Sequence record: OW849040.1
DNA: 56,641 nt
Direction: 5' to 3' (one strand)
From: a plasmid
The position numbers and the translations under genes were made by a program. The notes below the pieces were generated by a model that saw only the letters and a list, made by a program, of their open reading frames with translations, searched no databases and was not told where the DNA came from. Of this stretch, positions 21,187 through 46,560 are shown in pieces. How positions within the stretch are numbered: the first letter of the stretch is position 1; each line of letters starts with the position of its first letter.

Positions 21187-22182
21187 ATGACTGATGCAGC
21201 TTTCTATCAACTTGGCCCACTGCGCGAGTATTTAGAAGATCCTACTGTTTTTGAAATTCGCATTAACTGCTTTCAGGAAGTTATCTGTGATACGTTCAGC
21301 GGCCGCAGGGTTGTGCAGAACGCGGCAATTACGGCAGATTTTATTAGGAACCTTGCTAAATCGTTGGTGAGCAGCAACAAGCTGACCATGCAGGCCATTA
21401 ATGACGTGATCCTGCCTGGCGGGATCAGGGGCGTTATCTGTCTGCCCCCTGCGGTGATTGACGGTACAACGGCCGTAGCGTTTCGTAAGGATTTGGCGGC
21501 CGATAAAAATCTGGAGCAGCTGACCAGCGAGGGGATTTTCAGTGACTGCCGGAAGATTACCGGCAGCAAGCAAAGCCTAACGGATGATGATTTTTTCCTT
21601 AAAGAGCTGCACAGCAGCGAAAAATGGCCCGCATTCCTGCAAACCGCCGTTGAGAAGAAACGCACTATCGTGATCTGCGGTGAAACCGGGTCGGGGAAAA
21701 CGGTACTCACGCGCGCGCTGTTAAAATCGCTACATAAAGACGAGCGTGTAATTATTTTAGAGGACGTTCACGAAGTCACGGTCGATCACGTTGTAGAAGC
21801 CGTTTATATGATGTACGGCGATGCAGGAAAGATCGGCCGCGTCAGCGCCACTGATGCCCTGCGAGCCTGTATGCGTCTGACACCGGGCCGTATCATCATG
21901 ACTGAGCTTAGGGATGATGCTGCGTGGGATTATCTTAAAGCACTTAATACCGGCCATCCAGGCGGTGTTATGTCAACGCACGCTAACTCTGCGCGCGATG
22001 CCTTTAACCGTATTGGGCTGCTTATCAAGGCGACCCCTATCGGCCGTATGCTCGATATGAGCGATATTATGCGAATGCTCTACTCCACCATTGACGTTGT
22101 GGTGCATATGGAAAAGCGGAAAATCAAAGAAATTTATTTTGACCCTGAATATAAAATGCAGTGTGTGAACGGGAGCCTGTAA
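21187..22182 (+). CDS. traG: VirB11-like secretion ATPase (pKM101 TraG)
   Basis: 331 aa, Walker A GETGSGKT. Preceded by hairpin GGGCGCT-TA-AGCGCCC (21150-21172). Confidence 0.9.
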   Translation: MTDAAFYQLGPLREYLEDPTVFEIRINCFQEVICDTFSGRRVVQNAAITADFIRNLAKSLVSSNKLTMQAINDVILPGGIRGVICLPPAVIDGTTAVAFRKDLAADKNLEQLTSEGIFSDCRKITGSKQSLTDDDFFLKELHSSEKWPAFLQTAVEKKRTIVICGETGSGKTVLTRALLKSLHKDERVIILEDVHEVTVDHVVEAVYMMYGDAGKIGRVSATDALRACMRLTPGRIIMTELRDDAAWDYLKALNTGHPGGVMSTHANSARDAFNRIGLLIKATPIGRMLDMSDIMRMLYSTIDVVVHMEKRKIKEIYFDPEYKMQCVNGSL

Positions 22183-22715
22183 TGAAAAACTTAGCAACCT
22201 GGCTTCTGGCCGCAGCATTTACGACAGCCGCCCTGCCCGCCTTTGCGGTGGAACCATCCGTTCAGGTTGGCTACTCGCCTGAAGGAAGCGCCCGCGTTCT
22301 CGTCCTGAGCGCCATTGACTCCGCAAAAACCTCGATACGGATGATGGCTTATTCTTTTACCGCCCCGGATATTATGAAGGCACTGGTAGCAGCCAAAAAA
22401 CGGGGAGTTGATGTGAAAATCGTAATTGATGAAAGGGGCAATACGGGGCGCGCCAGCATTGCGGCCATGAACTACATAGCGAACAGCGGCATCCCTTTGC
22501 GTACTGACAGTGATTTCCCTATCCAGCATGACAAGGTGATCATCGTGGATAATGTGACCGTTGAAACTGGCAGCTTTAATTTCACCAAAGCGGCCGAAAC
22601 GAAAAACTCGGAGAATGCGGTGGTGATCTGGAACATGCCTAAGCTCGCTGAATCATTCCTCGAACACTGGCAAGACCGCTGGAATCGGGGGAGAGACTAC
22701 CGTTCCAGCTACTGA
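22182..22715 (+). CDS. nuc: Phospholipase-D-family periplasmic endonuclease (pKM101 Nuc-like)
   Basis: 177 aa with signal peptide, directly after virB11 as in pKM101. Confidence 0.75.
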   Translation: MKNLATWLLAAAFTTAALPAFAVEPSVQVGYSPEGSARVLVLSAIDSAKTSIRMMAYSFTAPDIMKALVAAKKRGVDVKIVIDERGNTGRASIAAMNYIANSGIPLRTDSDFPIQHDKVIIVDNVTVETGSFNFTKAAETKNSENAVVIWNMPKLAESFLEHWQDRWNRGRDYRSSY

Positions 22716-22721
22716 ATACTG

Positions 22722-22746
22722 ACCGCCGAAAGGCGGTTTTTTTTGT
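22722..22746 (+). terminator. Rho-independent terminator (CCGCCGAAAGGCGG plus T-run) ending the T4SS/nuc operon
   Basis: Read directly. Confidence 0.7.
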
Positions 22747-22888
22747 TCAAAGAAACTGATCTCAGTATCGCGCACGGGGCAGCTGGCCAACGTCGCCGGC
22801 ATCGCGCCGGCAAAAATCGAAAAACAGAAATATCAGCAAGATAGCTTAAACAGGTGTCGGGAAATTTCGTTGAGATATTTTGAAGGAA

Positions 22889-23178
22889 TCACAGTGTAAG
22901 CAGGCGGCCTATTTCAAAAAAGGCGGCTGTACGGTAGTCACTGACTCTCTCGCAGATCTTCCCGCTCATGTACCAGTAATACCCGTCAGTGCTGACAATA
23001 TCGAGCAAATACCGCATATCATAAACCGTATCGGGTATTACCTCACCCTCACCGGCCAGAACGCCGCTGGCAATAGAATGGTTCCCTCCTCGTACAAAGC
23101 CTATCCGCCAGGGCAACCACAAAGTAACGCGGTGGTTAATATCCTGTACCCACGGATTGCCCTTAGCGCTGCCTATAT
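22889..23178 (-). pseudogene. fipA: 3-prime half (94 codons) of a 208-aa backbone gene split by the 23179-36583 transposon. The 5-prime half is 36584-36925. Possibly fipA
   Basis: Reading frame continues in phase across the TATAT target duplication from ...SALADI (36584 side) to GSAKGNPWVQ... (23178 side). fipA naming is only from pKM101 gene order (nuc-fipA-traI). Confidence 0.5.
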
Positions 23179-23442
23179 GGGGTCTGAGGTCCAACCATGC
23201 GAAAAACCACGTTAAGAAAGCAACCTTCTGAAAAGGCGACGTTTATCAGTTTTTTTTCCGGCCATAAAGGGGGCGGAAATTATTCCCTGCACGGGTATTC
23301 GCAAGGATTTCGGTAGTGCTCTGGCTCTGCCCCCCATAACCTGGCGGACAGAGCATGATTGGGAAAGCGGTACCCTCACGGCAGAAACGATTGACGCAGG
23401 CTATATTTCTATTATTCTGGAAATATAGATAAAGGAGGTATT

Positions 23443-23624
23443 ATGGATTTAAACACTGCTGCAAACGCACTTCGAGAACTGGGCCACCCGACACGTCTCA
23501 GCATATACCGGGAGCTGGTCAGGGCGGGTCATGAAGGCCTGCCGGTTGGCGAACTGCAGAAGCACCTTGAGATTCCTGCCTCCACGCTCAGCCATCATCT
23601 TTCAGCGCTGATATCCGCTGGACG
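23443..23624 (+). pseudogene. ArsR/SmtB-family regulator gene, truncated by IS26 after about 60 codons. Upstream inverted repeat ATATTTC-N10-GAAATAT (23414-23437) is a likely operator
   Basis: HTH segment PTRLSIYRELVRAGHEGLPVGELQKHLEIPASTLSHHLSAL. The ORF runs into the IS26 IRL at 23625. Confidence 0.5.
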
Positions 23625-24443
23625 GCACTGTTGCAAATAGTCGGTGGTGATAAACTTATCATCCCCTTTTGCTGATGGAGCTGCACATGAACCCATTCAA
23701 AGGCCGGCATTTTCAGCGTGACATCATTCTGTGGGCCGTACGCTGGTACTGCAAATACGGCATCAGTTACCGTGAGCTGCAGGAGATGCTGGCTGAACGC
23801 GGAGTGAATGTCGATCACTCCACGATTTACCGCTGGGTTCAGCGTTATGCGCCTGAAATGGAAAAACGGCTGCGCTGGTACTGGCGTAACCCTTCCGATC
23901 TTTGCCCGTGGCACATGGATGAAACCTACGTGAAGGTCAATGGCCGCTGGGCGTATCTGTACCGGGCCGTCGACAGCCGGGGCCGCACTGTCGATTTTTA
24001 TCTCTCCTCCCGTCGTAACAGCAAAGCTGCATACCGGTTTCTGGGTAAAATCCTCAACAACGTGAAGAAGTGGCAGATCCCGCGATTCATCAACACGGAT
24101 AAAGCGCCCGCCTATGGTCGCGCGCTTGCTCTGCTCAAACGCGAAGGCCGGTGCCCGTCTGACGTTGAACACCGACAGATTAAGTACCGGAACAACGTGA
24201 TTGAATGCGATCATGGCAAACTGAAACGGATAATCGGCGCCACGCTGGGATTTAAATCCATGAAGACGGCTTACGCCACCATCAAAGGTATTGAGGTGAT
24301 GCGTGCACTACGCAAAGGCCAGGCCTCAGCATTTTATTATGGTGATCCCCTGGGCGAAATGCGCCTGGTAAGCAGAGTTTTTGAAATGTAAGGCCTTTGA
24401 ATAAGACAAAAGGCTGCCTCATCGCTAACTTTGCAACAGTGCC
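23625..24443 (+). mobile_element. IS26 (complete copy). No 8-bp target duplication (cgctggac vs ttttttcc), consistent with IS26-mediated rearrangement
   Basis: GGCACTGTTGCAAA ends at both termini. Tnp26 ORF intact. Confidence 0.9.
23687..24391 (+). CDS. tnp26: IS26 transposase Tnp26
   Basis: 234 aa MNPFKGRHFQRDIILWAVRWYCKYGISYRELQEMLAERGVNVDHSTIYRWVQRYAPEM... Confidence 0.9.
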   Translation: MNPFKGRHFQRDIILWAVRWYCKYGISYRELQEMLAERGVNVDHSTIYRWVQRYAPEMEKRLRWYWRNPSDLCPWHMDETYVKVNGRWAYLYRAVDSRGRTVDFYLSSRRNSKAAYRFLGKILNNVKKWQIPRFINTDKAPAYGRALALLKREGRCPSDVEHRQIKYRNNVIECDHGKLKRIIGATLGFKSMKTAYATIKGIEVMRALRKGQASAFYYGDPLGEMRLVSRVFEM

Positions 24444-24895
24444 TTTTTTCCTGCGGTGTACGACGCCGACGCCGCTCAGGTCCTGATAACACTCCAACCA
24501 TCTTATCGTTCTGACTGGTATTAAACATAGTTCCAAGACTACCTCTTATTTTAAGAGAGTCGAAGTGTCTGGTGATCTATGGGGCCAGTCTAGCCCTCTT
24601 CCAAGTGTAGGGAGATATAGTCAAAGTTTGCTTCTCCGCCGATGAGTCCGCCCTGCGTCGGATAGTCCGATTTTTTACCGGCGAAGCACGGCTCTCCTAA
24701 CCCTATCTAAAGCGAATAACTTTTTTCAACAGGGCCGCGTGCCAATGCAAGAGCGATAGGCGCTCTACGCGCCAATTTGACCACTTAAAACAGGTAAATT
24801 GAGGGGTTGTAATGTGTTGATGTAACAGGCTTTTATTTTAATGTCTTGGCATATGTATAATGGTAGTCTAGCCCTCCTTTCAACAAGGAGTACTC

Positions 24896-25552
24896 ATGGA
24901 AACCTACAATCATACATATCGGCACCACAACTTTTCACATAAAGACTTAAGTGATCTCACCTTCACCGCTTGCACATTCATTCGCAGCGACTTTCGACGT
25001 GCTAACTTGCGTGATACGACATTCGTCAACTGCAAGTTCATTGAACAGGGTGATATCGAAGGCTGCCACTTTGATGTCGCAGATCTTCGTGATGCAAGTT
25101 TCCAACAATGCCAACTTGCGATGGCAAACTTCAGTAATGCCAATTGCTACGGTATAGAGTTCCGTGCGTGTGATTTAAAAGGTGCCAACTTTTCCCGAAC
25201 AAACTTTGCCCATCAAGTGAGTAATCGTATGTACTTTTGCTCAGCATTTATTTCTGGATGTAATCTTTCCTATGCCAATATGGAGAGGGTTTGTTTAGAA
25301 AAATGTGAGTTGTTTGAAAATCGCTGGATAGGAACGAACCTAGCGGGTGCATCACTGAAAGAGTCAGACTTAAGTCGAGGTGTTTTTTCCGAAGATGTCT
25401 GGGGGCAATTTAGCCTACAGGGTGCCAATTTATGCCACGCCGAACTCGACGGTTTAGATCCCCGCAAAGTCGATACATCAGGTATCAAAATTGCAGCCTG
25501 GCAGCAAGAACTGATTCTCGAAGCACTGGGTATTGTTGTTTATCCTGACTAA
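24896..25552 (+). CDS. qnrS1: Pentapeptide-repeat quinolone-resistance protein QnrS1
   Basis: 218 aa METYNHTYRHHNFSHKDLSDLTFTACTFIRSDF..., recalled as QnrS1. Allele-level identity not verifiable here. Confidence 0.85.
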   Translation: METYNHTYRHHNFSHKDLSDLTFTACTFIRSDFRRANLRDTTFVNCKFIEQGDIEGCHFDVADLRDASFQQCQLAMANFSNANCYGIEFRACDLKGANFSRTNFAHQVSNRMYFCSAFISGCNLSYANMERVCLEKCELFENRWIGTNLAGASLKESDLSRGVFSEDVWGQFSLQGANLCHAELDGLDPRKVDTSGIKIAAWQQELILEALGIVVYPD

Positions 25553-25870
25553 TTGCTTTGATGTGTGATTTTAAACGCTCAAATTTATAAAACGAATAAT
25601 ATTGTCAACCTTGCAATAATAGACATAGGGACAACCATGTATAAATTTTTACCCTCAGGCGTCTTCACAATAGAGCCATATAGCAGTGGGTCACTTAGTG
25701 GGCTTAATTTTTCCATTAAAGATAATATTAATATTGCTCAGTATAAAACATCATATGGTAGCCCATCTTGGCAAGTAAACATAAGGCTGCCATTTATAAG
25801 GCACTGTTGCAAAAATGTGGAGGTGATAGGGGTACTACGCCGGAACCCCAGATTTTTCCGTCCGTTCAAA

Positions 25871-26485
25871 TTATCCACGGTTGAACAGCTTGATCCCGTC
25901 CGCCCGCAGTTGACCAACAGGGGAAATATGCCTGTACAAAGTTTGCCGGGTTATCCCAAGTTCCTGGCATAGCGTACTGACCTTTGTTTCTGATTGTCCC
26001 ATTGATGCCATTGCCAGTCGCAGTTTGACTGGCGTCATTTTATAAGGTCGGCCGCCGTTCCGCCCACGGGCTCTTGCTGATGCCAGACCTGCAGTCGTTC
26101 TTTCAGCAATCAGTTCGCGCTCAAACTCCGCCAGTGCGGCAAAGATACCGAAGACAAGCTTGCCAGCGGCCGTTGTTGTGTCGATAGTCGCCCCGTGACC
26201 GGTCAGCACTTTCAGACCGGTCCCCCTCGCGGTCAGGTCGTGCACTGTATTAATGAGATGACGAAGATCACGACCGAGGCGGTCCAGCTTCCATACGACC
26301 AGCGTGTCTCCGGGTCGTAGTGCTTTCAGACAGGCTGTAAGTCCAGGACGCTCTTCTCGTTTGCCCGATGCCCGGTCCTCATAAAAATGTGCGGCATCAA
26401 CACCTGCGGCGATCAGTGCATCACGTTGTAAATCATTCGTCTGCGAACCATCCGCTTTTGACATCCGAATATATCCGATGAACAT
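25871..26485 (-). CDS. tnpR: Serine recombinase / resolvase (TnpR-like) linked to qnrS1
   Basis: Start MFIGYIRMS (catalytic Ser motif) behind AGAGGAAAT RBS. 204 aa with C-terminal HTH. The ORF track extends to 26539. Confidence 0.75.
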   Translation of the reverse strand: MFIGYIRMSKADGSQTNDLQRDALIAAGVDAAHFYEDRASGKREERPGLTACLKALRPGDTLVVWKLDRLGRDLRHLINTVHDLTARGTGLKVLTGHGATIDTTTAAGKLVFGIFAALAEFERELIAERTTAGLASARARGRNGGRPYKMTPVKLRLAMASMGQSETKVSTLCQELGITRQTLYRHISPVGQLRADGIKLFNRG

Positions 26486-26852
26486 ATTTCCTCTGTCACA
26501 TATACGTTCGATTATGTGACATTCTGATTTGGGTACCATAATCTGTCAACGGTAGTCACATTACCCGTAATTTAAATTATGACACGTAAAGGTTCTATGT
26601 TAATGAGGCACTGTTGCAAAGTTAGCGATGAGGCAGCCTTTTGTCTTATTCAAAGGCCTTACATTTCAAAAACTCTGCTTACCAGGCGCATTTCGCCCAG
26701 GGGATGGGGTCTGACGCTCAGTGGAACGAAAACTCACGTTAAGGGATTTTGGTCATGAGATTATCAAAAAGGATCTTCACCTAGATCCTTTTAAATTAAA
26801 AATGAAGTTTTAAATCAATCTAAAGTATATATGAGTAAACTTGGTCTGACAG

Positions 26853-27725
<873 letters not shown>

Positions 27726-27895
27726 TCAATATTATTGAAGCATTTACCAGGGTTATTGTCTCATGAGCGGATACATATTTGAATGTATTTAGAAAAATAA
27801 ACAAATAGGGGTTCCGCGCACATTTCCCCGAAAAGTGCCACCTGACGTCTAAGAAACCATTATTATCATGACATTAACCTATAAAAATAGGCGTA

Positions 27896-28555
<660 letters not shown>

Positions 28556-28616
28556 TTATAACATTTCGTACGGTTGGAAAAATGTTACTAAATGCCCGTC
28601 AGGCAGGGAGGCCGAT

Positions 28617-31600
28617 ATGCCCGTTGACTTTCTGACCACTGAGCAGACTGAAAGCTATGGCAGATTCACCGGTGAACCGGATGAGCTTCAGCTGGCACGA
28701 TATTTTCACCTTGATGAAGCAGACAAGGAATTTATCGGAAAAAGCAGAGGTGATCACAACCGTCTGGGCATTGCCCTGCAAATTGGATGTGTCCGTTTTC
28801 TGGGCACCTTCCTCACCGATATGAATCATATTCCTTCCGGCGTCCGGCATTTTACCGCCAGACAGCTCGGGATTCGTGATATCACCGTTCTTGCAGAATA
28901 CGGTCAGAGGGAAAATACCCGCCGTGAGCATGCAGCGCTGATACGTCAGCACTATCAGTATCGTGAATTTGCCTGGCCCTGGACATTTCGCCTTACCCGT
29001 CTTTTATATACCCGGAGCTGGATAAGCAACGAACGTCCTGGCCTGCTTTTCGATCTGGCGACAGGGTGGCTTATGCAACATCGTATTATTCTCCCCGGAG
29101 CCACTACGCTGACCCGGTTGATTTCAGAGGTAAGGGAAAAGGCGACGTTGCGCCTGTGGAACAAACTGGCACTGATACCGTCAGCCGAACAGCGTTCACA
29201 GCTGGAGATGCTGCTGGGGCCAACTGATTGCAGCCGCCTGTCTTTACTGGAATCACTGAAAAAGGGCCCTGTGACCATCAGTGGTCCGGCGTTTAATGAA
29301 GCAATTGAACGCTGGAAAACTCTGAACGATTTTGGCCTGCATGCTGAAAACCTGAGTACACTCCCGGCTGTGCGCCTGAAAAATCTCGCACGTTATGCTG
29401 GTATGACTTCGGTGTTCAATATTGCCAGGATGTCACCGCAGAAAAGGATGGCGGTTCTGGTTGCCTTTGTCCTTGCATGGGAAACGCTGGCGCTGGATGA
29501 TGCATTGGACGTTCTGGACGCCATGCTGGCCGTTATCATCCGTGACGCCAGAAAGATTGGGCAGAAAAAACGGCTCCGCTCGCTGAAGGATCTGGATAAA
29601 TCTGCATTGGCGCTCGCCAGCGCATGTTCGTACCTGCTGAAAGAAGAAACACCGGACGAATCGATTCGTGCTGAGGTGTTCAGCTACATCCCAAGGCAAA
29701 AGCTGGCTGAAATCATCACGCTTGTCCGTGAAATTGCCCGGCCCTCAGACGATAATTTTCATGAAGAAATGGTGGAGCAGTACGGGCGCGTTCGTCGTTT
29801 CCTGCCCCATCTGCTGAATACCGTTAAATTTTCATCCGCACCTGCCGGGGTTACCACTCTGAATGCCTGTGACTACCTCAGCCGGGAGTTCAGCTCACGG
29901 CGGCAGTTTTTTGACGACGCACCAACGGAAATTATCAGTCGGTCATGGAAACGGCTGGTGATTAACAAGGAAAAACATATCACCCGCAGGGGATACACGC
30001 TCTGCTTTCTCAGTAAACTGCAGGATAGTCTGAGGCGGAGGGATGTCTACGTTACCGGCAGTAACCGGTGGGGAGATCCTCGTGCAAGATTACTACAGGG
30101 TGCTGACTGGCAGGCAAACCGGATTAAGGTTTATCGTTCTTTGGGGCACCCGACAGACCCGCAGGAAGCAATAAAATCTCTGGGTCATCAGCTTGATAGT
30201 CGTTACAGACAGGTTGCTGCACGTCTTTGCGAAAATGAGGCTGTCGAACTCGATGTTTCTGGCCCGAAGCCCCGGTTGACAATTTCTCCCCTCGCCAGTC
30301 TTGATGAGCCGGACAGTCTGAAACGACTGAGCAAAATGATCAGTGATCTACTCCCTCCGGTGGATTTAACGGAGTTGCTGCTCGAAATTAACGCCCATAC
30401 CGGATTTGCTGATGAGTTTTTCCATGCTAGTGAAGCCAGTGCCAGAGTTGATGATCTGCCCGTCAGCATCAGCGCCGTGCTGATGGCTGAAGCCTGCAAT
30501 ATCGGTCTGGAACCACTGATCAGATCAAATGTTCCTGCACTGACCCGACACCGGCTGAACTGGACAAAAGCGAACTATCTGCGGGCTGAAACTATCACCA
30601 GCGCTAATGCCAGACTGGTTGATTTTCAGGCAACGCTGCCACTGGCACAGATATGGGGTGGAGGAGAAGTGGCATCTGCAGATGGAATGCGCTTTGTTAC
30701 GCCAGTCAGAACAATCAATGCCGGACCGAACCGCAAATACTTTGGTAATAACAGAGGGATCACCTGGTACAACTTTGTGTCCGATCAGTATTCCGGCTTT
30801 CATGGCATCGTTATACCGGGGACGCTGAGGGACTCTATCTTTGTGCTGGAAGGTCTTCTGGAACAGGAGACCGGGCTGAATCCAACCGAAATTATGACCG
30901 ATACAGCAGGTGCCAGCGAACTTGTCTTTGGCCTTTTCTGGCTGCTGGGATACCAGTTTTCTCCACGCCTGGCTGATGCCGGTGCTTCGGTTTTCTGGCG
31001 AATGGACCATGATGCCGACTATGGCGTGCTGAATGATATTGCCAGAGGGCAATCAGATCCCCGAAAAATAGTCCTTCAGTGGGACGAAATGATCCGGACC
31101 GCTGGCTCCCTGAAGCTGGGCAAAGTACAGGTTTCAGTGCTGGTCCGTTCATTGCTGAAAAGTGAACGTCCTTCCGGACTGACTCAGGCAATCATTGAAG
31201 TGGGGCGCATCAACAAAACGCTGTATCTGCTTAATTATATTGATGATGAAGATTACCGCCGGCGCATTCTGACCCAGCTTAATCGGGGAGAAAGTCGCCA
31301 TGCCGTTGCCAGAGCCATCTGTCACGGTCAAAAAGGTGAGATAAGAAAACGATATACCGACGGTCAGGAAGATCAACTGGGCACACTGGGGCTGGTCACT
31401 AACGCCGTCGTGTTATGGAACACTATTTATATGCAGGCAGCCCTGGATCATCTCCGGGCGCAGGGTGAAACACTGAATGATGAAGATATCGCACGCCTCT
31501 CCCCGCTTTGCCACGGACATATCAATATGCTCGGCCATTATTCCTTCACGCTGGCAGAACTGGTGACCAAAGGACATCTGAGACCATTAAAAGAGGCGTC

Positions 31601-31622
31601 AGAGGCAGAAAACGTTGCTTAA
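28617..31622 (+). CDS. tnpA: Tn3-family transposase TnpA
   Basis: 1001 aa from MPVDFLTTEQ. Stop lies inside the terminal IR. The ORF track extends upstream to 28458. Confidence 0.9.
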   Translation: MPVDFLTTEQTESYGRFTGEPDELQLARYFHLDEADKEFIGKSRGDHNRLGIALQIGCVRFLGTFLTDMNHIPSGVRHFTARQLGIRDITVLAEYGQRENTRREHAALIRQHYQYREFAWPWTFRLTRLLYTRSWISNERPGLLFDLATGWLMQHRIILPGATTLTRLISEVREKATLRLWNKLALIPSAEQRSQLEMLLGPTDCSRLSLLESLKKGPVTISGPAFNEAIERWKTLNDFGLHAENLSTLPAVRLKNLARYAGMTSVFNIARMSPQKRMAVLVAFVLAWETLALDDALDVLDAMLAVIIRDARKIGQKKRLRSLKDLDKSALALASACSYLLKEETPDESIRAEVFSYIPRQKLAEIITLVREIARPSDDNFHEEMVEQYGRVRRFLPHLLNTVKFSSAPAGVTTLNACDYLSREFSSRRQFFDDAPTEIISRSWKRLVINKEKHITRRGYTLCFLSKLQDSLRRRDVYVTGSNRWGDPRARLLQGADWQANRIKVYRSLGHPTDPQEAIKSLGHQLDSRYRQVAARLCENEAVELDVSGPKPRLTISPLASLDEPDSLKRLSKMISDLLPPVDLTELLLEINAHTGFADEFFHASEASARVDDLPVSISAVLMAEACNIGLEPLIRSNVPALTRHRLNWTKANYLRAETITSANARLVDFQATLPLAQIWGGGEVASADGMRFVTPVRTINAGPNRKYFGNNRGITWYNFVSDQYSGFHGIVIPGTLRDSIFVLEGLLEQETGLNPTEIMTDTAGASELVFGLFWLLGYQFSPRLADAGASVFWRMDHDADYGVLNDIARGQSDPRKIVLQWDEMIRTAGSLKLGKVQVSVLVRSLLKSERPSGLTQAIIEVGRINKTLYLLNYIDDEDYRRRILTQLNRGESRHAVARAICHGQKGEIRKRYTDGQEDQLGTLGLVTNAVVLWNTIYMQAALDHLRAQGETLNDEDIARLSPLCHGHINMLGHYSFTLAELVTKGHLRPLKEASEAENVA

Positions 31623-32381
31623 CGTGAGTTTTCGTTCCACTGAGCGTCAGACCCCGGGATCACCATAATAAAATGCTGAGGCCTGGCCTTTGCGTAGTGC
31701 ACGCATCACCTCAATACCTTTGATGGTGGCGTAAGCCGTCTTCATGGATTTAAATCCCAGCGTGGCGCCGATTATCCGTTTCAGTTTGCCATGATCGCAT
31801 TCAATCACGTTGTTCCGGTACTTAATCTGTCGGTGTTCAACGTCAGACGGGCACCGGCCTTCGCGTTTGAGCAGAGCAAGCGCGCGACCATAGGCGGGCG
31901 CTTTATCCGTGTTGATGAATCGCGGGATCTGCCACTTCTTCACGTTGTTGAGGATTTTACCCAGAAACCGGTATGCAGCTTTGCTGTTACGACGGGAGGA
32001 GAGATAAAAATCGACAGTGCGGCCCCGGCTGTCGACGGCCCGGTACAGATACGCCCAGCGGCCATTGACCTTCACGTAGGTTTCATCCATGTGCCACGGG
32101 CAAAGATCGGAAGGGTTACGCCAGTACCAGCGCAGCCGTTTTTCCATTTCAGGCGCATAACGCTGAACCCAGCGGTAAATCGTGGAGTGATCGACATTCA
32201 CTCCGCGTTCAGCCAGCATCTCCTGCAGCTCACGGTAACTGATGCCGTATTTGCAGTACCAGCGTACGGCCCACAGAATGATGTCACGCTGAAAATGCCG
32301 GCCTTTGAATGGGTTCATGTGCAGCTCCATCAGCAAAAGGGGATGATAAGTTTATCACCACCGACTATTTGCAACAGTGCC

Positions 32382-32499
32382 CAGTCCACGCCTCAGAACT
32401 TGTGGGCTCGCTTTTAAAAAGTTCCCGTCCGTCAGGGCTGGCGCAGGCGATTATGGAGGTGGGACGGGTCAACAAGACGCTGTACCTCCTCAACTACAT
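32382..32499 (+). pseudogene. Internal fragment (about 39 codons, ...LKSSRPSGLAQAIMEVGRVNKTLYLLNY) of a Tn3/gamma-delta-like tnpA. Continues at 36164-36550 on the other side of Tn5403
   Basis: In-frame continuity LLNY / IDDEDYRRRILTQ across the Tn5403 insertion. 5-prime side cut by IS26. Confidence 0.7.
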
Positions 32500-32532
32500 G
32501 GGGTCGGTTCCGGCTGAGGGCGAAATGACACC

Positions 32533-35430
32533 CTAAGCTTTCGGTTCCTTGGGCCAAAGATATTCGCCAGTCAGTAGAATGTGCGCCCAGCCCAATGGGG
32601 ATATGTGGGGAAGAAATTCAGGGGGAACATCCAACCCTTCGTTCCGCCGCTCCGTGACGGCATGACCAAGATGGACGGTATTCCAGTAAATGATCACCGC
32701 AGTCAATAAATTGAGCCCAGCGATTCGGTAGTGCTGCCCCTCTGTCGTGCGATCGCGAATTTCCCCCTGCCTCCCGATACGGAGCGCATTTTTGAGCGCA
32801 TGGTGGGCCTCTCCCTTGTTAAGACCGATCTGAGCACGCCGCTGCATGTCCGTATCCAGGATCCACTCAATAATGAAAAGGGTCCGTTCAATACGACCAA
32901 CTTCACGAAGCGCAACTGCAAGGTTGTTTTGTCGTGGGTAAGAAGCGAGCTTGCGCAGGAGTTGGCTGGGCCTGATTTTGCCAGCGGTCATCGTCGCGGC
33001 ACAACGGAAAATATCAGGCCAGTTCGCAACGATAAGATCCTCCCGGGCTTTTCCACCTACCAACTTGCGTAACTCCCTGGGGGTCGTATCGGGATTAAAT
33101 ACGTACAACCGCTTCGATGGCAGATCCCTGATTCGCAGAACGAGATTGTAGCCGAGCAGGCTACTGGCTCCGAACAAATGGTCGGTGAATCCTGCTGTAT
33201 CGGCATACTGTTCGCGAACATGGCGACCGACCTCGTTCATCAGTAGTCCATCGAGAATATACGGTGCCTCGCTCACGGTCGCCGGGATCGACTGACAAGC
33301 GAATGGCGCGAACTGGTCGCTTACGTGAGTATACGCTTTGAGGCCGGGAACAGAACCATATTTGGCATTGACCATGTTCATGACTTCGCCATGCCGCGCT
33401 GTCGGGAAAAACTGACCATCGCTCGATGCTGACGTGCCCATCCCCCAGACGCGTGACATCGGCAGTTTACCCTGCGCGGCCACCACAATTGCCAATGCCT
33501 GGTTCATGGCTTCGCTTTCAACATGCCAGCGGGCAAGGCGTGAGAGCTGCCAGTAATCATGCGTGTTTGTAGCTTCCGCCATCTTACGCAGGCCCAGATT
33601 GAGCCCTTCAGCGAGCAGGACGTTGAGCAGACCGATCCGGTCGCGACATGGAGCCCCGGTTCTCAGATGGGTAAACGCATCTGTGAAACCAAGGGCTGCA
33701 TCAACTTCAAGCAGCATGTCGGTAATCCGAACGGACGGCATTCGGCGATACAGATCCAGTATGAGTGCCTCGGCACCATCCGGCACGTCTGCTGTCAACC
33801 TGTCGATCCGCAACGTTCCATCTTCTATGCTACCGTGCGGAATAGTGCCGTTACGGGCAGCCCGGGCCAGCCGCTTAAGAGCGATCGTGAGTCGCGCCTT
33901 TCTGTCTGCCAGCCAATCCTGTGGGTTGGAAGGCACGGCCAGTTTTGCATTTTCCTGCGCCGCGATCATCGGCACCAGTACCTGCTTGAGGTCACCATAG
34001 CGGCGCGAATGAGCGAGCCAGACATCTCCGGAACGAAAAGCATCCCGGAGGTGAAAGAGTACCGCCACTTCCCAAAGACGGGTATCTCCTTTTTCCTGAG
34101 CTCGTAAATGACGGTTCCATTTGGAGCTGGGCCGCAGGAAACGCCTTTCTGGCGATGCAACACCTTTCATCTCTCCGATCGACAAAGCTGCTGCTACCAA
34201 TGGTCCGGCGACCGGCGCGGCTTCGAGCTTCAGACAGCGCAACATGCGGGGCGCATAACGACGAAAGCGATGGTATCCCTGCCCGACATATGCAAGAGGC
34301 TCATCGGCTAGCGTGTTGCTGAGTTGAGTCCCTGTCGCTACCAGTTGAGCGAGCCGGTCCCATGCAACCGAACTGGCGACAGCCATCTCCAGCGGGGTTC
34401 CGTCACTGCGGGCCTCAAGCAACGAAGCTCCCAGCGCGGTGAAGGTACGGATCGTATCCGTGAGTGTGGCTTTAGAGCCGGAAATTGTTTCGTCATGCTG
34501 GCGCTTCGCTTCCCGCCAGGTTTTTCCTACGATCCTGTCATGGGTTTCGACTATGGCATCAGCAATCGCCGCTTCCCACTCCACAACACAGACGGCAAGG
34601 ATCGCCCAGCGGCGGTCCGAAGTGATGTCACGCAAACCGTCGGTGAAGTAGCGTTCACCCTGCCGACGCAGCCGGGCAATGCGATGGGCAGGTATGCTGG
34701 CCAAAGCACTATGATTGATATTCAGGGTACGCAGAAATTCGAGCCTGTCGAGCAAACGGTTAGCAGCAGCCGAGTTGTTACCAACCTCGAAGTTGCGAAG
34801 CCAGATGAAACGACTGATATTGCCGGCGAGCATTTCACTCAGAAGTTTGTCCAGGTGATCGCGAACATCCGCTGTTAAATTTTCCGCAATCCGCGTTTCA
34901 ATCCGCCGCTCAGCGGCGACCAGAGCATCCGCGCACAAGCGCTCGATTGTCGATACTGCGGGCAGAATGGTGGAAGTTTCCCGACACCGCACAATAAAAC
35001 GATGAGCAAGATCCTCGTTTGATCTGGCATCTTCGGCCTGGCCGAAAGTCCACTCCCGCAGATCACGGGCACCACGGCCCGTGAAGGTCTTGTAGCCGTA
35101 AATTTCGCGCAGCGTGTCCATGTGCTGCTGACGGGTTTGGCGCCGTGTGGCATAAGTGAGAAGCGCATCAGCCGGAACTCCAAGCTGAGCACCGACGAAG
35201 GAAAGGACTTCACGCGGGATCATCTCACCAGGAGCCAGTGCACGGCCCGGATATCGTAAGGCACAAAGTTGCAGGGCAAAGCCAATCCTGTTTTCCGGTC
35301 TGCGGCGCTGCCTAATGTTTTCCAGGTCATCATCGCCCAGCGTGTAGAACTTCAGTAGCGACAGTTCGTCCGTGGGCAGATCGAACAGCGCTGCTCGCTG
35401 CCGTTCGGTGAAAATATGGCGTCGTGACAT
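32533..35430 (-). CDS. tnpA: Tn5403-like transposase TnpA
   Basis: 965 aa MSRRHIFTERQRAALFDLPTDELSLLKFYTLGDDDLENIRQRR... Tn3-family DDE transposase. Stop inside the IR. Confidence 0.85.
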   Translation of the reverse strand: MSRRHIFTERQRAALFDLPTDELSLLKFYTLGDDDLENIRQRRRPENRIGFALQLCALRYPGRALAPGEMIPREVLSFVGAQLGVPADALLTYATRRQTRQQHMDTLREIYGYKTFTGRGARDLREWTFGQAEDARSNEDLAHRFIVRCRETSTILPAVSTIERLCADALVAAERRIETRIAENLTADVRDHLDKLLSEMLAGNISRFIWLRNFEVGNNSAAANRLLDRLEFLRTLNINHSALASIPAHRIARLRRQGERYFTDGLRDITSDRRWAILAVCVVEWEAAIADAIVETHDRIVGKTWREAKRQHDETISGSKATLTDTIRTFTALGASLLEARSDGTPLEMAVASSVAWDRLAQLVATGTQLSNTLADEPLAYVGQGYHRFRRYAPRMLRCLKLEAAPVAGPLVAAALSIGEMKGVASPERRFLRPSSKWNRHLRAQEKGDTRLWEVAVLFHLRDAFRSGDVWLAHSRRYGDLKQVLVPMIAAQENAKLAVPSNPQDWLADRKARLTIALKRLARAARNGTIPHGSIEDGTLRIDRLTADVPDGAEALILDLYRRMPSVRITDMLLEVDAALGFTDAFTHLRTGAPCRDRIGLLNVLLAEGLNLGLRKMAEATNTHDYWQLSRLARWHVESEAMNQALAIVVAAQGKLPMSRVWGMGTSASSDGQFFPTARHGEVMNMVNAKYGSVPGLKAYTHVSDQFAPFACQSIPATVSEAPYILDGLLMNEVGRHVREQYADTAGFTDHLFGASSLLGYNLVLRIRDLPSKRLYVFNPDTTPRELRKLVGGKAREDLIVANWPDIFRCAATMTAGKIRPSQLLRKLASYPRQNNLAVALREVGRIERTLFIIEWILDTDMQRRAQIGLNKGEAHHALKNALRIGRQGEIRDRTTEGQHYRIAGLNLLTAVIIYWNTVHLGHAVTERRNEGLDVPPEFLPHISPLGWAHILLTGEYLWPKEPKA

Positions 35431-35524
35431 ACAAATTCGTCCCTTTTGAAGTATAGTCTGTTTTGGACAACAGCCAGCCCATATAAATCAGGGCGTTCCG
35501 ATACAAAAATCCAGGAGGGTTCAA

Positions 35525-36130
35525 TTGGGACATCGTGCCGCCATTTACTGCCGGGTTTCAACAGCGGATCAGTCTTGTGAACGCCAGGAATTTGATCTGC
35601 GAGCCTTCGCCGGCCGTGCCGGCTACGACGTGGTGGGAATATTTAAGGAAACAGGTTCAGGAACTAAACTCGACCGGGCCGAGCGAAAGAAAGTCCTGGC
35701 GCTTGCCCAGTCCAGACAAATTGATGCAATCCTGGTCACTGAGCTTTCCCGGTGGGGGCGCTCGACGCTCGATCTGCTCAATACGCTACGTGAACTGGAG
35801 AACTGGAAGGTTTCCGTGATAGCCATGAATGGAATGGCGTTCGATCTTTCGTCGCCGTATGGACGAATGCTGGCGACGTTTCTTTCCGGCATTGCGGAGT
35901 TTGAGCGGGATCTCATCAGCGAGCGGGTCAAGTCAGGCCTTGCTGTTGCGAAGGCACGTGGTAAGAGGCTTGGTCGTCAGGCCGGAGTGCGACCAAAATC
36001 AGACCGACTTTTGCCTAAGGTGGTTGCGATGAGGGCCGAGGGACGCAGCTATCGCTGGATCGCACGCGAGCTCGGTATCAGCAAGAATACCGTCGCTGAC
36101 ATCGTGCAACGACACAGAGCTAACGCTTAG
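35525..36130 (+). CDS. tnpR: Tn5403-like resolvase TnpR
   Basis: 201 aa AIYCRVSTADQS serine recombinase, divergent from tnpA with the res region 35431-35524. Stop inside the right IR. Confidence 0.85.
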   Translation: MGHRAAIYCRVSTADQSCERQEFDLRAFAGRAGYDVVGIFKETGSGTKLDRAERKKVLALAQSRQIDAILVTELSRWGRSTLDLLNTLRELENWKVSVIAMNGMAFDLSSPYGRMLATFLSGIAEFERDLISERVKSGLAVAKARGKRLGRQAGVRPKSDRLLPKVVAMRAEGRSYRWIARELGISKNTVADIVQRHRANA

Positions 36131-36163
36131 GGTGTCATTTCGCCCTCAGCCGGAACCGACCCC

Positions 36164-36550
36164 TACATTGATGATGAAGAATATCGTCGCAGGATACTGA
36201 CTCAGCTTAACCGGGGAGAAGGCCGTCACGCCGTGGCAAGGGCGATCTGTTACGGCCAACGTGGTGAGATTAGAAAACGTTACCGTGAGGGGCAGGAGGA
36301 TCAACTGGGTGCGCTGGGGCTTGTCACTAACGCAGTTGTATTGTGGAACACGCTTTATATGCAGGAAGCGCTATCACATTTGCGCAGCGCTGGTGAGATC
36401 CCGGAAGACGAGCATATCTCACGCCTGTCGCCACTGATGTACGGTCATATCAACATGCTGGGACATTATACGTTCACGCTGCCGGAAAATATTCTGAAGG
36501 GAGAGTTGAGGCCATTAAATTTCAATTCAAACAATGAATTATTGCCTTAA
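36164..36550 (+). pseudogene. C-terminal 128 codons of the interrupted Tn3/gamma-delta-like tnpA, ending inside the right-hand IR at 36546-36583
   Basis: About 80 percent identical by eye to the Tn3 TnpA C-terminus (YIDDEDYRRRILTQLNRGE...HINMLGHY). Confidence 0.7.
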
Positions 36551-36559
36551 CGTGGTTTT

Positions 36560-36925
36560 TTACACGATTGAACCTCGAACCCCTATATCGGCTAAAGCAC
36601 TCCGGTAGCTTGATTCACCCCACGGCCACGGCAGGATCTTGGCCGTCGCAAGCGCCAGGGGAAAATCTTCAGCTGCAAGCCTGAGTGATTTCATGTGCGT
36701 GTAATCCATCGCCCAGATGATTTTTGTGAAGAAGAACTCGCGCTCGTTCATGTCCGGGCGCGCGTCCTGGCCCTCCGTGCCAACGGCCAGCAAGTAATCG
36801 GCCTGAATTGGCAGTATCAGCGCGCGTAGTAAGTCATGGATCGCCGGTTGCGGCAGTCTGCGCGCCAGATTAATTACCCGGTCGAACTTCAGTTTATCCT
36901 GCTTGCGCTTGTCGGTCTGCTCCAT
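36560..36925 (-). pseudogene. fipA: 5-prime 114 codons of the split backbone gene (fipA candidate) fused to 7 IR-encoded codons. Translationally coupled to traI (shared ATGA)
   Basis: See 22889-23178. The tail GVRGSIV* is encoded by the transposon IR. Confidence 0.5.
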
Positions 36926-39900
36926 CAGATTTCATGGCCCCCTTCTTCATGCTCATGCTCATGGGTGTGTTCTTTTCCGGTATGGCTCTGTTCCGCCTGA
37001 GACGTCTGCGGCATGGCGTAATCGTCGTAAATGCTGCTGTCAAAGTCGTAGTCTGATGCTTCGGCATAATGCTCGTAATCGGCATACTCCTGCGCGCTCC
37101 ACTGCTGATCGTCGGCAGCAGCATAATCATGGGCCAGTTCTGCATCATTTTGCTGTGCTTCATGACGCCGCAGGCCAACGGAATCATCCATAGGGTTCTG
37201 CTTAAGATGAAAGGCGTCCTCTGCGTTGCTCACCGGCTGATAATCAGTGCCGGTTGTCATGTTATGTTCATCGGGTTTCTGGTTAAACGCCATGCTTTCC
37301 CCCGTGGCTTCTGGCAGACCTTTTTCAGCTGATCGGGTTTCTAAACTGGTATCGCGGCCAATATCCTTAAACCTGGCCTCAAGCCCAAAGAAACGGTCAA
37401 TTTCTGCGGCCGTGGTTTTCGGGCTGTCGCGGCTCACGCTCGATGCCAAAGATTTTTTATCGTCGGTAAAAATTTCCACCTCATGACGCGCACGCGAAAT
37501 ACCAACATAAAAAACGTCCTTAGAAGTGGTAAGCGATTTGGTATCTATGTTGAACAACACGCGATCACAGGTAAGCCCCTGGGATTTGTGGACGGTGGTT
37601 GCATAAGCATAGGAAAGATAAGAAGCCTGTTTTTTGTCCAGCTCAACCGTGCGCCCTTTTTTGTCCTCAAGCGTCAGTTTTTCACCCTCCACGGTTTTCA
37701 CCGTGAAGCGGTCGCCGTTGGCAACGTCCAGCGTTTTATCGTTACGCGTTACCATGACCTTATCGCCCGGCGCCAGTTCGGCGCTGACTGCCTGGTATAC
37801 AGACAGCTTGGTGTGTGTACGCGGGCTGAAAGCGATCTGCTCACCGCTGCTGCTTTCAACCGTCAATTTGTTGCCCGGCCCGGTATCAAGAACCTGGTAA
37901 GACTCGCCCCGCTTCATACCATTTTTGTAATCCTGTTCGGGGATAATGATTTGCCCTTTACTGAAATAACGGCTGTCGCGGCGTTCCGCCTGTGTCGAAT
38001 CCACGCGGTCAAGTAGCGTGAACGTTTCGCCGGTTCCGGCAAGCCCCAGATTGCCCCGGATGTAGTCATTGAGGGTTTTGCGTGAGGCGTTCGTACCAGA
38101 GATTATCAGGGTGGCATCCTGTTGTTCTGAGGACAGAGACAGGTAGCGATCGGCAAGTTGAGCGAGTCGGGGCGCTTCTTCCTTCAGTTCGTTCACGCCG
38201 GTGATATTTTTCAGGGCGCGCGCGGCATTACCTTCAGCGGCATACTTAACCGCCTCAAGCAAAACTTCATTCTTCTGTCGCTGAATGTCTTTCATGTAGC
38301 TGGTCTGCATACCTGCTTTAATCAGCTGCTCAAAAGGCTTACCGGCTTCTACCGCTTTCGTCTGTGACGTATCCCCCAGGAATACCGCGCGAGCGTTATG
38401 CTTCTCGATCACCTCCATCAGCTGTTTCATCTGCCGGGCGGGTATAACCCCGGCTTCATCAATGAATACGACTGATTTTTCATCCAGCTTTTTATCCTTC
38501 GCTTTGAGGAAGGCGGCAACGGTGCGGGCCGGTAATCCATCATCTTCAAGCGCTTTTTTCTGTGTCCCATAGGGGGCCAGCGCCGTGACCTTCAGCCCTT
38601 GTGACTCCAGCAGCTCTTTAGCGGCCATCGTCATATAGCTTTTACCGGTACCGGCGTAACCATGTGCGGCCACAAAACGATCTTTGCTCGTCACAATTTC
38701 TGTAACTGCGCGCATCTGCTCATTCTTGAGGGTTTTCCCGGCGAGCAGCTGGCCTGCAATCTCTGCGGTCAGCTGTCGCGGCATCTGCCCCCGGCCGCGT
38801 GATTCGATAGTCAGAATGGAACGCTCAAGGCGAATACCCTCCACGGTAGTGACGCGGTGGCTGGTCTTTTTAAGCCTGCCGTTTTTAATACCATCATCTA
38901 CCGCAAAACGGGCTTTATCCGCACGCATCCCGCTATTCGTCAGCGAGTCGATCCACTCTTTGCGCGTCAGAGTTTCGGCCATAACTGAAGCACCGACCTT
39001 CAGCGTTGATTGATACCGGGCTTCGCCCTCGATGATGGCGCCCTTCTGTACCGCCTTCAGGTACGCTTTTTCAACATCGGCCATTGTGGCATGGCCCAGC
39101 ACCTGCTTATTAGCGATCTGAATCAGCTTCTGGCGTTCAAAGCTGGCATCGCGCTCTGACAGCGACTTAACTGCAAACTGGATAGCCCGGTCAGCTTTAA
39201 CCTCAGGGCTGGTAAAATCCGGGGCCATGTTGCGCGCAATATCAGCCTCCAGAGGTTTACCGTGTCCCTGCCATTCACGGTTATCAAAATCAATGCCTAG
39301 CGTTTTGGCGCGGCTGGCCCATTCCTGGTGAATTTCTTCACGGGAATGCTCTGTTTTCTTTTCACGCGTCGCCATCGAGACGCGGCTTTTCGTCTGAGCA
39401 TCGGCGGTTTCCCGCGTCAGGCCCATTGCAGCGAGTCCCTTTTCAATTTGCTCCGACCGGCGGGAAAAAGCGCGAATCTGTTCGTCTGAAAAATGGGCCA
39501 TATCGAACGTGTTATTTTTGCTGTTGTAACGCAGCTCATAACCGGCTTTGGTCAACTCCAGCGCCAGCTCCTGTTTGTAAACATCGCCCAGGTGCATTTT
39601 GTTACGCATCAGCTCATCATTTTTGAGCGCGCGCCACTGGCCGTCCTCGCGCTGGGTCATGTTCATGACAAAAGCGTGGGTGTGCAAATCAGGATCTAGC
39701 GCCCTGGACGTTTCGTGGCGAAAAGTAGCGACGACAAGGTTATTGGTATTCTGGGTTACTGATTTCCCCTGGCGAGTCGTCCGGGCCTGCGCGAGTTTTT
39801 CAGCTTCACGCACAGCAGCGGCAACAGCTTTTTCATGAGCCTCGATAATGGTTTTATCGCCGTGTATCAGCGCCTGCATGGATACCCCTTTAGGCGCTGA

Positions 39901-40161
39901 AAACGTCAGGTCGTAGCCCAGACGCTCTTTTTTGGCATCACCCACGTGTCGCTGCATATGCGTGAAGGTATCTATCTCTCCGACAAGCAGCTCTTTAAAC
40001 CGGGCTGATTCAACGTCCCCGGATAAGCCGAGGGCTTCAGCTCCGGTTCCCTGCCAGGACGTGAATGATGAATCCTTACTGTAGTAATCATCCTTTGCAT
40101 CAGAGTAGTAGCCCACAACGCTAGTGACGTTCTGGCGGGTAATCGTGGTTATATCAAGCAT
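36925..40161 (-). CDS. traI: MOBF relaxase-helicase (TrwC family, pKM101 TraI-like)
   Basis: 1078 aa. N-terminal relaxase with HxH-type histidines (DPDLHTHAFV). Helicase Walker A GYAGTGKS. Acidic His/Glu-rich tail. Confidence 0.85.
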   Translation of the reverse strand: MLDITTITRQNVTSVVGYYSDAKDDYYSKDSSFTSWQGTGAEALGLSGDVESARFKELLVGEIDTFTHMQRHVGDAKKERLGYDLTFSAPKGVSMQALIHGDKTIIEAHEKAVAAAVREAEKLAQARTTRQGKSVTQNTNNLVVATFRHETSRALDPDLHTHAFVMNMTQREDGQWRALKNDELMRNKMHLGDVYKQELALELTKAGYELRYNSKNNTFDMAHFSDEQIRAFSRRSEQIEKGLAAMGLTRETADAQTKSRVSMATREKKTEHSREEIHQEWASRAKTLGIDFDNREWQGHGKPLEADIARNMAPDFTSPEVKADRAIQFAVKSLSERDASFERQKLIQIANKQVLGHATMADVEKAYLKAVQKGAIIEGEARYQSTLKVGASVMAETLTRKEWIDSLTNSGMRADKARFAVDDGIKNGRLKKTSHRVTTVEGIRLERSILTIESRGRGQMPRQLTAEIAGQLLAGKTLKNEQMRAVTEIVTSKDRFVAAHGYAGTGKSYMTMAAKELLESQGLKVTALAPYGTQKKALEDDGLPARTVAAFLKAKDKKLDEKSVVFIDEAGVIPARQMKQLMEVIEKHNARAVFLGDTSQTKAVEAGKPFEQLIKAGMQTSYMKDIQRQKNEVLLEAVKYAAEGNAARALKNITGVNELKEEAPRLAQLADRYLSLSSEQQDATLIISGTNASRKTLNDYIRGNLGLAGTGETFTLLDRVDSTQAERRDSRYFSKGQIIIPEQDYKNGMKRGESYQVLDTGPGNKLTVESSSGEQIAFSPRTHTKLSVYQAVSAELAPGDKVMVTRNDKTLDVANGDRFTVKTVEGEKLTLEDKKGRTVELDKKQASYLSYAYATTVHKSQGLTCDRVLFNIDTKSLTTSKDVFYVGISRARHEVEIFTDDKKSLASSVSRDSPKTTAAEIDRFFGLEARFKDIGRDTSLETRSAEKGLPEATGESMAFNQKPDEHNMTTGTDYQPVSNAEDAFHLKQNPMDDSVGLRRHEAQQNDAELAHDYAAADDQQWSAQEYADYEHYAEASDYDFDSSIYDDYAMPQTSQAEQSHTGKEHTHEHEHEEGGHEI

Positions 40162-45124: not shown

Positions 45125-45304
45125 CTATTTAGTTTGTTGCAGCAGCTGGTCTAATTTTGCCGCCAGTGCATACGTCGATGTGAAAGCGCCTTGCAGGCGC
45201 TGATTAGGCAGCTGGTTGAACGCTTCGAGGCAGGCGCGCAGCAATAATTCTTTCTGAGATTCGACTTCTTTTTTCAGCTGGGAAGGGGTGGTAACAGTGG
45301 TCAT
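45125..45304 (-). CDS. 59-aa hypothetical protein directly behind a CUP promoter copy
   Basis: MTTVTTPSQLKKEVESQKELLLRACLEAFNQLPNQRLQGAFTSTYALAAKLDQLLQQTK. AGGAG RBS. Not in the ORF track because under 60 aa. Confidence 0.45.
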   Translation of the reverse strand: MTTVTTPSQLKKEVESQKELLLRACLEAFNQLPNQRLQGAFTSTYALAAKLDQLLQQTK

Positions 45305-45960
45305 GCTTACTCCTTAGTGATCCGATACCGGCAATTTTTCGGGTGGCGGTATTGCCTCCCGATGATTTAATTATCGGTGATTACGCCTTTAAAGTCAATA
45401 CAAGTACGGAATTTATTTACATGTTTTTATGCCCGTCAGGGCATGGAAGGCGACCGCGCCGGACTCCACCGGACACCGGCCGCAAATCGCCGGAAACTGC
45501 GGGACTGACCGGAGCAACAGGCCAACCCCCCTTCCTGCTAAGCCATAACCCAGCCCGCCGCCACGCAGCTGCCGCACGTCCCCCACGGGGGTGCGCAGTG
45601 GGCGCCGCGCGCCTGCGCGCGGGTACGGCGGCCCGCCTGCGGGTCGCGGCGCCGTACTGCGAGTTAGCGGCCGCCGCGCGGCCGGTTACGGGGGACACCG
45701 CACCGTCACGGCCAGCGCCCCGCTGAGCTGCACAATCCACGGATAACACAATAGCGCACTGGCAAAGGATGCCGACGCCTGAAGGGCGTTGGCACCCCGA
45801 AGGGGCGGGGCGGCCGCTTGCGGCCGGGCGAGTCCGGCGCAGGGTGTGGCCTGCCAAGCGGAGCGCGGAGGCCGAAGGCCGGAGGCGTTAGCGGCCGCTG
45901 CCCGCGTAAGCGGGGCGAGACGGGAACCGGCTCGATGCGCAGCACAGCAGAGCGGCCCCG
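45305..45960 (-). repeat. Full CUP-like module: P1 promoter/operator (TTGACT-N17-GATAAT at 45370-45398 on minus strand, palindrome CCGATGATTTAATTATCGG), P2 GC-rich segment, A repeat (45541-45740), B repeat (45780-45960)
   Basis: P1 recurs at 46990-47100, 47485-47555 (partial), 48205-48432, 52680-52915 and 56100-56170, each directly 5-prime of a minus-strand gene. Confidence 0.7.
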
Positions 45961-46070
45961 AAGGGGTAACGCCCTGTGTGGCATCAGGATTTAGCACAAT
46001 GTCAGAACATAAACTGGAGAGATCACCGGCAAGCAGCTGCAAAGGGGCGGCACAGCCGCCCCGATGGCTG

Positions 46071-46178
46071 TTACTTGTCTTTGTCGCGTAGCACTTTGAT
46101 TAGGCCGGTTACGGCCGTAATCAGAGCGGCCAGCGAGGTGATGATTTGCGGTAGGTTTTCGAGGATGGTAGAGGTCAT
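46071..46178 (-). CDS. Candidate 35-aa hydrophobic peptide (MTSTILENLPQIITSLAALITAVTGLIKVLRDKDK)
   Basis: Short ORF with one predicted TM helix and a charged tail, downstream of a perfect 16-bp inverted repeat. Coding status unproven. Confidence 0.25.
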   Translation of the reverse strand: MTSTILENLPQIITSLAALITAVTGLIKVLRDKDK

Positions 46179-46399
46179 ATAGCACCTGTAGAGAAGTTGG
46201 CGGGGTGTCGTTTCCGACGGCCGCACTGTAACCGGGCGAATAAGGCAGGTTGTCAACAGCTTGAGCGAAGCGTCTGTTGACAACCTGCCGCGCCCGGTTT
46301 CACTGCGGTCATAGGCGGAACGACCCACGCCAACGGAACGGCTTTATGACCGGGCAGCTGAGATACCGGCGAACCTGGCTGGCGGCTGACGCCAGCCGC

Positions 46400-46560
46400 C
46401 AAGCGCCAGCGCGGAGGGCGAAGCCCGGAGGCCAAGCGGAGCGCGGAGGCCGAAGGCCGGAGGCGTTAGCGGCCGCTGCCCGCGTAAGCGGGGCGAGACG
46501 GGAACCGGCTCGATGCGCAGCACAGCAGAGCGGCCCCGAAGGGGTAACGCCCGGAGTCTG
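46400..46560. repeat. B-type GC-rich repeat copy
   Basis: Near-identical to 45800-45960. Confidence 0.7.

Follow-up and report, generated by a model that had tools for sequence, protein, structure and literature searches.

The sequence analysed here (OW849040.1), a window of 56,641 nt, is by comparison with R46 a complete circular 56.6-kb conjugative IncN plasmid that starts at repA, position 1 matching the base with which repA of R46 opens and position 56641 the one directly preceding that gene. Directly after the relaxase gene traI of this plasmid, the non-essential gene fipA is split into two pieces by 13,405 bp of inserted DNA. The inserted element is a nested mosaic on one degraded Tn6292-type unit transposon of the Tn3 family that carries the quinolone-resistance gene qnrS1. 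The features at the split gene and at the outer ends of the element are given below in order of position, with IR denoting inverted repeat and ORF open reading frame.

22161..22715, plus strand: nuc, encoding a phospholipase D-family nuclease, convergent with fipA (Pfam PLDc_2; annotated as phospholipase D or nuc in relatives)
22721-22738: terminator-like hairpin after nuc, from a terminator scan
22889..23178, minus strand: 3' fragment of fipA, codons ~114-208 plus the stop, including the left TATAT; R46 and pRSB203 are collinear up to 23178
23174..23178: left target-site duplication TATAT, 5 bp, directly outside the left IR
23179-23216, plus strand: terminal IR of the Tn6292-type element distal to tnpA, 38 bp, GGGGTCTGAGGTCCAACCATGCGAAAAACCACGTTAAG
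36546-36583, minus strand: terminal IR of the Tn6292-type element at the tnpA end, 38 bp, reverse complement GGGGTTCGAGGTTCAATCGTGTAAAAAACCACGTTAAG
36560..36925, minus strand: truncated fipA ORF of 121 aa, made of 115 native residues and VRGSIV contributed by the IR
36584..36588: right target-site duplication TATAT, 5 bp, directly outside the right IR
36584-36925, minus strand: native 5' fragment of fipA
36925..40161, minus strand: traI, encoding a MobF relaxase-helicase (Pfam TrwC and AAA_30), arranged likewise in R46 and pRSB203

Our in-silico excision of the element together with one TATAT yielded an uninterrupted minus-strand ORF of 208 aa, with the joint reading ...SALADIGSAKGNPW..., which bears out the proposal of an initial annotation, made from the sequence alone, that the two halves rejoin in phase across a single TATAT. 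Only when both halves are rejoined does the product match DUF6710 over its full length (Pfam PF20457, E 7.1e-45, residues 7-206 against profile positions 9-198 of 205); no NCBIfam model was found for the rejoined 208-aa protein. R46 carries a 208-aa DUF6710 gene directly after its own MobF relaxase gene (traI) and convergent with a phospholipase-D nuclease gene (nuc), and the rejoined protein is identical to the R46 protein at 205 of 208 positions, the order traI-fipA with a convergent nuc being common to R46, pRSB203 and the window. The same gene carries the name fipA in pRSB203 and FipA in several other records. The suggestion, originally made from IncN gene order, that the interrupted gene could be fipA is therefore well founded, with a full-length homologue occupying the same position between traI and nuc in R46 and an explicit fipA annotation in pRSB203. 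pKM101 is a deletion derivative of R46. In plasmid N3 the equivalent gene is reported to be 100% identical to pKM101 FipA AAC63100 (PMC3347995).

At the DNA level, the rejoined 1,791 bp aligns in one piece to uninterrupted IncN backbones at 99.4-99.8% identity, and 111 PLSDB records contain a single place that accounts for 80% or more of its length. The empty site of the intact plasmids R46 and pRSB203 holds a single TATAT, so that the two copies flanking the element represent a true duplication, as had been supposed. The start of fipA does overlap the stop of traI, although not in the ATGA form described initially: the traI stop TGA (36927-36925) and the fipA start ATG (36925-36923) have 1 nt in common, giving TGATG on the minus strand, and the same 1-nt overlap is present in R46. 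With stop and start abutting in this way, translational coupling of traI and fipA is plausible. Unlike fipA of R46 and pKM101, the 627-bp gene of the window is split after codon 115, and only the 121-aa stub has a start codon in its native context. The 366-bp coding sequence of this stub is labelled 'DUF6710 family protein' or 'FipA' in pKPC-47e, pKOX105 and other plasmids, its status as a fragment being unflagged.

The outer ends of the insertion define the element that split the gene. Two related 38-bp IRs, each with TATAT immediately outside, were found at the coordinates reported in the initial annotation; they are identical at 31 of 38 positions and both have the GGGG...AAAAACCACGTTAAG form of Tn3-type ends. 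When both strands of the window were scanned with up to 9 substitutions allowed, neither IR matched anything except its partner. The number of matches expected by chance in the window at 31 or more identical positions of 38 is ~4e-8, falling to ~4e-11 when a matching 5-mer is also required, and a chance origin of the IR pair with its TATAT copies was ruled out on this basis. The seven mismatches nevertheless exceed those of many Tn3-family elements and count against a single unit transposon. They would suit a history in which the two repeats are the ends of different Tn3-family transposons joined by recombination or deletion, so that the 13.4 kb was never one mobile unit, as would the heavy rearrangement of the interior by IS26, which often joins unrelated fragments. 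Such a history has to contend with the exact 5-bp direct duplication around the pair and with the exact restoration of the gene on its removal. It is further contradicted by E. coli ET82 plasmid unnamed3 (NZ_CP101008.1, 8255-13035), in which the identical pair of IRs lies in an unrelated backbone flanked by CTTTA on both sides. Because the same pair occurs there with a duplication of its own, the two unequal IRs belong to one transposon, and the joining of unrelated ends is effectively refuted; we give it next to no credence. The ET82 element is 4.8 kb in length and comprises a truncated ArsR gene, IS26, qnrS1, a resolvase gene, IS26 and a transposase stub, and since its duplication differs from TATAT, strict target specificity of the transposon is not evident. 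In this ET82 copy the transposase gene is already truncated by IS26, which implies either that the element moved before the truncation or that it was mobilised in trans.

Between these ends, the anatomy of the element can be read directly from the sequence, as follows.

23443..23623, plus strand: ArsR/SmtB-family regulator gene, truncated by IS26 (Pfam HTH_20/HTH_5 on ORF 23443-23640; partial ArsR/SmtB annotation in ET82)
23624..24443, plus strand: intact IS26, 820 bp (14-bp IS26 IRs; IS6-family transposase)
24896..25552, plus strand: qnrS1 quinolone-resistance gene (NCBIfam QnrS, 516.8 bits, 1-218/218; QnrS1 annotation in relatives)
25871..26539, minus strand: serine recombinase gene, the tnpR resolvase of the Tn6292-type element (Pfam Resolvase, 1e-42)
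26607..26705, minus strand: second IS26 copy, right-end 99 bp (IS26 IR at 26607-26620)
26706..31655, plus strand: Tn1/Tn2/Tn3-group transposon within IS26, 4,950 bp (perfect 38-bp Tn3 IRs at both ends; GGGAT flanks)
26853-27713, minus strand: blaTEM-1 of the 4,950-bp transposon (NCBIfam blaTEM, 665 bits)
27896-28489, minus strand: ORF, tnpR of the 4,950-bp transposon
28458-31622, plus strand: ORF, tnpA of the 4,950-bp transposon (NCBIfam transpos_Tn3, 1157 bits)
31656..32381, minus strand: second IS26 copy, the other 726 bp
32382..32499, plus strand: first piece of the Tn6292-type tnpA remnant, 118 bp, with one end cut off by IS26 and the other by Tn5403
32500..36163, minus strand: complete Tn5403, 3,664 bp (duplication TACAT; 42-nt inverted arms, 98% complementary)
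32533-35430, minus strand: Tn5403 tnpA (Tn3-family transposase, 980 bits; annotated as Tn5403-family transposase in matching records)
35525-36130, plus strand: Tn5403 tnpR (Resolvase profile match)
36164..36545, plus strand: second piece (3' end) of the Tn6292-type tnpA remnant, opening with the second TACAT copy (36164-36168)

The resolvase gene adjoins the transposase module, and the gene order agrees with the published description of Tn6292 (PMC5027574). When joined, the two remnants of the outer transposase gene (32382-32499 and 36169-36545) encode in frame ~165 aa from the C-terminus of a Tn3-family transposase, matching Pfam DDE_Tn3 at profile positions 312-389 of 389, and a stop at 36548-36550, a short way into the IR, closes this frame. 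Since tnpA survives only as this C-terminal remnant, the outer element is defective and, without an intact transposase, is predicted to be immobile on its own. The blaTEM-1 transposon (of the Tn3/Tn2 type) and Tn5403 both conform to the textbook, with 38-bp ends of the GGGG...ACGTTAAG type, a 5-bp duplication and divergent tnpA and tnpR genes, and both are passengers nested in the outer element rather than the agent that split fipA. The two pieces of the second IS26, separated by the blaTEM-1 transposon, measure 99 and 726 bp and together equal 820 bp plus a 5-bp duplication. Inspection of the flanks of both IS26 copies revealed no 8-bp flanking duplication, which agrees with deletion or rearrangement driven by IS26 rather than plain insertion. 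The alternative of a composite transposon bounded by IS26 was likewise considered and rejected, as the outer ends are Tn3-type IRs and not insertion sequences, and the internal IS26 pair lacks matching 8-bp flanks. The description of the insertion as a Tn3-family composite thus keeps its family assignment, while "composite transposon" gives way to a nested mosaic on a unit transposon, the word composite being apt only loosely, for a mosaic. Separately, a lone perfect 14-bp IS26 terminal repeat, GGCACTGTTGCAAA, lies at 25800-25813, flanked by qnrS1 and the resolvase gene and adjoining no IS26 sequence; it may be the footprint of an earlier IS26 event, or a chance occurrence.

Insertion of a Tn6292-type element into fipA is already known from the literature (PMC5027574, PMC7522282, PMC6045649). 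In IncN1 plasmids Tn6292 has two described integration sites, of which 'a region within fipA' is one (PMC5027574), and fipA has been reported as 'interrupted into two fragments' (PMC6045649). Along with its derivatives Tn6360 and Tn6696, Tn6292 occupies fipA in the IncN1 plasmids pP378-IMP, pIMP-HZ1, pNDM-BTR, pNDM1-CBG, pKOX105 and pKPC-47e, in the same gene and at the same insertion point as here, and the group shares with the window its 38-bp ends and its content of qnrS1, resolvase gene, IS26 and truncated tnpA. The window differs from this group in the additional blaTEM-1 Tn1/2/3-type transposon within one IS26 and in the complete Tn5403 within the tnpA stub, and the segments with ISKpn19, KPC, NDM or SHV-12 that those plasmids contain are missing from it.

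The junctions between fipA and the element are shared far beyond these plasmids. Counted as PLSDB records at 80% coverage or more, the left junction (fipA 3' half, IR and interior) is present in 409 records and the right junction in 159, and for each junction the matches listed are 100% identical. Among the carriers are pKOX105, pKPC-47e and a K. pneumoniae plasmid of 75.6 kb, and their interiors differ, with KPC-2, SHV-12 or other cargo. In our detailed comparison of junctions and interiors, which covered pKPC-47e and pKOX105, both plasmids had junctions 100% identical to those of the window together with an uninterrupted transposase stub beside IS26 and an empty Tn5403 site. Because these two plasmids hold both tnpA pieces contiguously, Tn5403 is a later arrival in the window.

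From junctions that are identical while interiors vary we infer a single ancestral event, and we hold with high confidence that a qnrS1-carrying Tn6292-type unit transposon entered fipA once, in an ancestor of this plasmid lineage, and was later remodelled in place. In the proposed order of events, a qnrS1-carrying Tn3-family unit transposon would first have inserted into an ancestral fipA with a 5-bp duplication of TATAT; copies of IS26 would then have removed most of the outer transposase gene and part of the cargo, the blaTEM-1 Tn1/2/3-type transposon would have entered one IS26 with duplication of GGGAT, and Tn5403 would have entered the leftover transposase stub with duplication of TACAT. 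The initial annotation had described a single ancient transposition. A single event agrees with junctions that are base-for-base identical around differing interiors, and "ancient" applies only in the sense that the event is ancestral to a large plasmid lineage whose members are still nearly identical.

The contrasting view is that the TATAT in fipA is a true hotspot that Tn6292-type elements entered at the same base pair several times independently. The word 'hotspot' has been applied to fipA in published papers, and Tn3-family elements favour AT-rich targets. That the gene tolerates repeated hits is indicated by pMTY1887_IncN (NZ_CP128967.1), in which an independent insertion of ~1.4 kb elsewhere in fipA (1342-2732), containing a 'replication protein' ORF, has reduced the gene to a 5' stub of 57 aa and a 3' ORF of 150 aa. 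Independent entries are nevertheless hard to reconcile with a position, an orientation, a 5-bp duplication and a first ~400 bp inside each end that are 100% identical across the matches listed, particularly as later IS26, Tn5403 and Tn1/2/3-type events account for the interior differences examined. The one other insertion of the element examined used CTTTA, so that strict site specificity is not evident, and TATAT occurs 40 times on the plus strand of the window plasmid alone. We therefore regard repeated independent insertion as very improbable, and the published 'hotspot' probably reflects remodelling in place of one insertion.

Several further observations weigh against a single insertion of a Tn6292-type element remodelled in place. 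The single origin is read from identical junctions, and one junction could likewise be spread when IncN backbones recombine with each other. The Tn6292 label is an assignment from gene content together with published gene order and position in fipA. In addition, neither PLSDB nor the complete E. coli genomes yielded a collinear match to the exact 13.4-kb arrangement: five PLSDB records reach at least 80% coverage of the 13.4-kb query, but merely when 6-8 pieces lying across 26-28 kb are joined, and among complete E. coli genomes no record reaches 80% coverage. Each module and junction type is familiar; the mosaic in the window joins these known parts in a new way.

Parts of the insertion and its edges also recur in other settings. 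The left junction (22780-23580, comprising the fipA 3' half, the IR, the truncated ArsR gene and the edge of IS26) is present in large Vibrio cholerae, Proteus mirabilis and Klebsiella plasmids; a piece of IncN backbone appears to have travelled with the resistance region, probably via IS26 or cointegrate formation. The segment 26706-36163, which covers the blaTEM-1 transposon, the 726-bp IS26 piece, the 118-bp tnpA stub and Tn5403, has ~100% matches in a range of other plasmids, among them E. coli plasmids that carry CTX-M-15 and plasmids of Klebsiella. These matches end at the end of Tn5403 and are made of 2-8 joined pieces, hence they are possibly not collinear; in the one relative examined, the order of Tn5403 and the blaTEM transposon differs, so that at least some of the matches are not a collinear block. 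Elsewhere on the plasmid, a second accessory region (2955-9517) contains a class 1 integron (intI1 at 3157-4170, dfrA14, IS6100) beside EcoRII-type restriction-modification genes and is shared at 100% identity over 6.9 kb with pKPC-47e-like IncN plasmids and several large plasmids. The area of the conserved upstream repeats and the ccg/ard genes (45282-50885) aligns with R46 only in short, rearranged pieces, a pattern in keeping with the rearrangements through repeats that have been described in IncN plasmids.

No polar effect of the insertion on the transfer genes is expected, since fipA comes last after traI and faces the convergent gene nuc, behind which lies a terminator-like hairpin belonging to nuc. 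FipA is reported to inhibit transfer of IncP plasmids through the coupling protein TraG (work of Santini and Stanisich, 1998, as cited in PMC5696584). As judged from its coding sequence, the plasmid would encode only a 121-aa N-terminal stub of FipA and has likely lost this inhibition of IncP transfer; counting against a complete loss, the stub could retain some FipA activity. Whether disruption of fipA helped the IncN1 lineage to succeed, through less interference with co-resident IncP and possibly other conjugation or through an altered activity of the stub, which still abuts the traI stop, is a speculation that we consider doubtful. The 111 records with an uninterrupted site, set against 159-409 records with the junctions, do not contradict selection, and resistance-driven clonal spread explains these numbers equally well.

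The significance of the locus is chiefly practical. The fipA::Tn6292 junction provides a lineage marker for widespread IncN1 resistance plasmids that carry qnrS1, KPC, NDM, VIM, IMP or SHV-12, to which the plasmid described here adds one further arrangement of known modules, of practical value only. The broken gene is hidden from view where annotation pipelines present the 121-aa stub as if it were a whole 'DUF6710 family protein'. The sole biological question that these findings make more testable is a modest one, namely whether the loss of FipA changes interference between plasmids.

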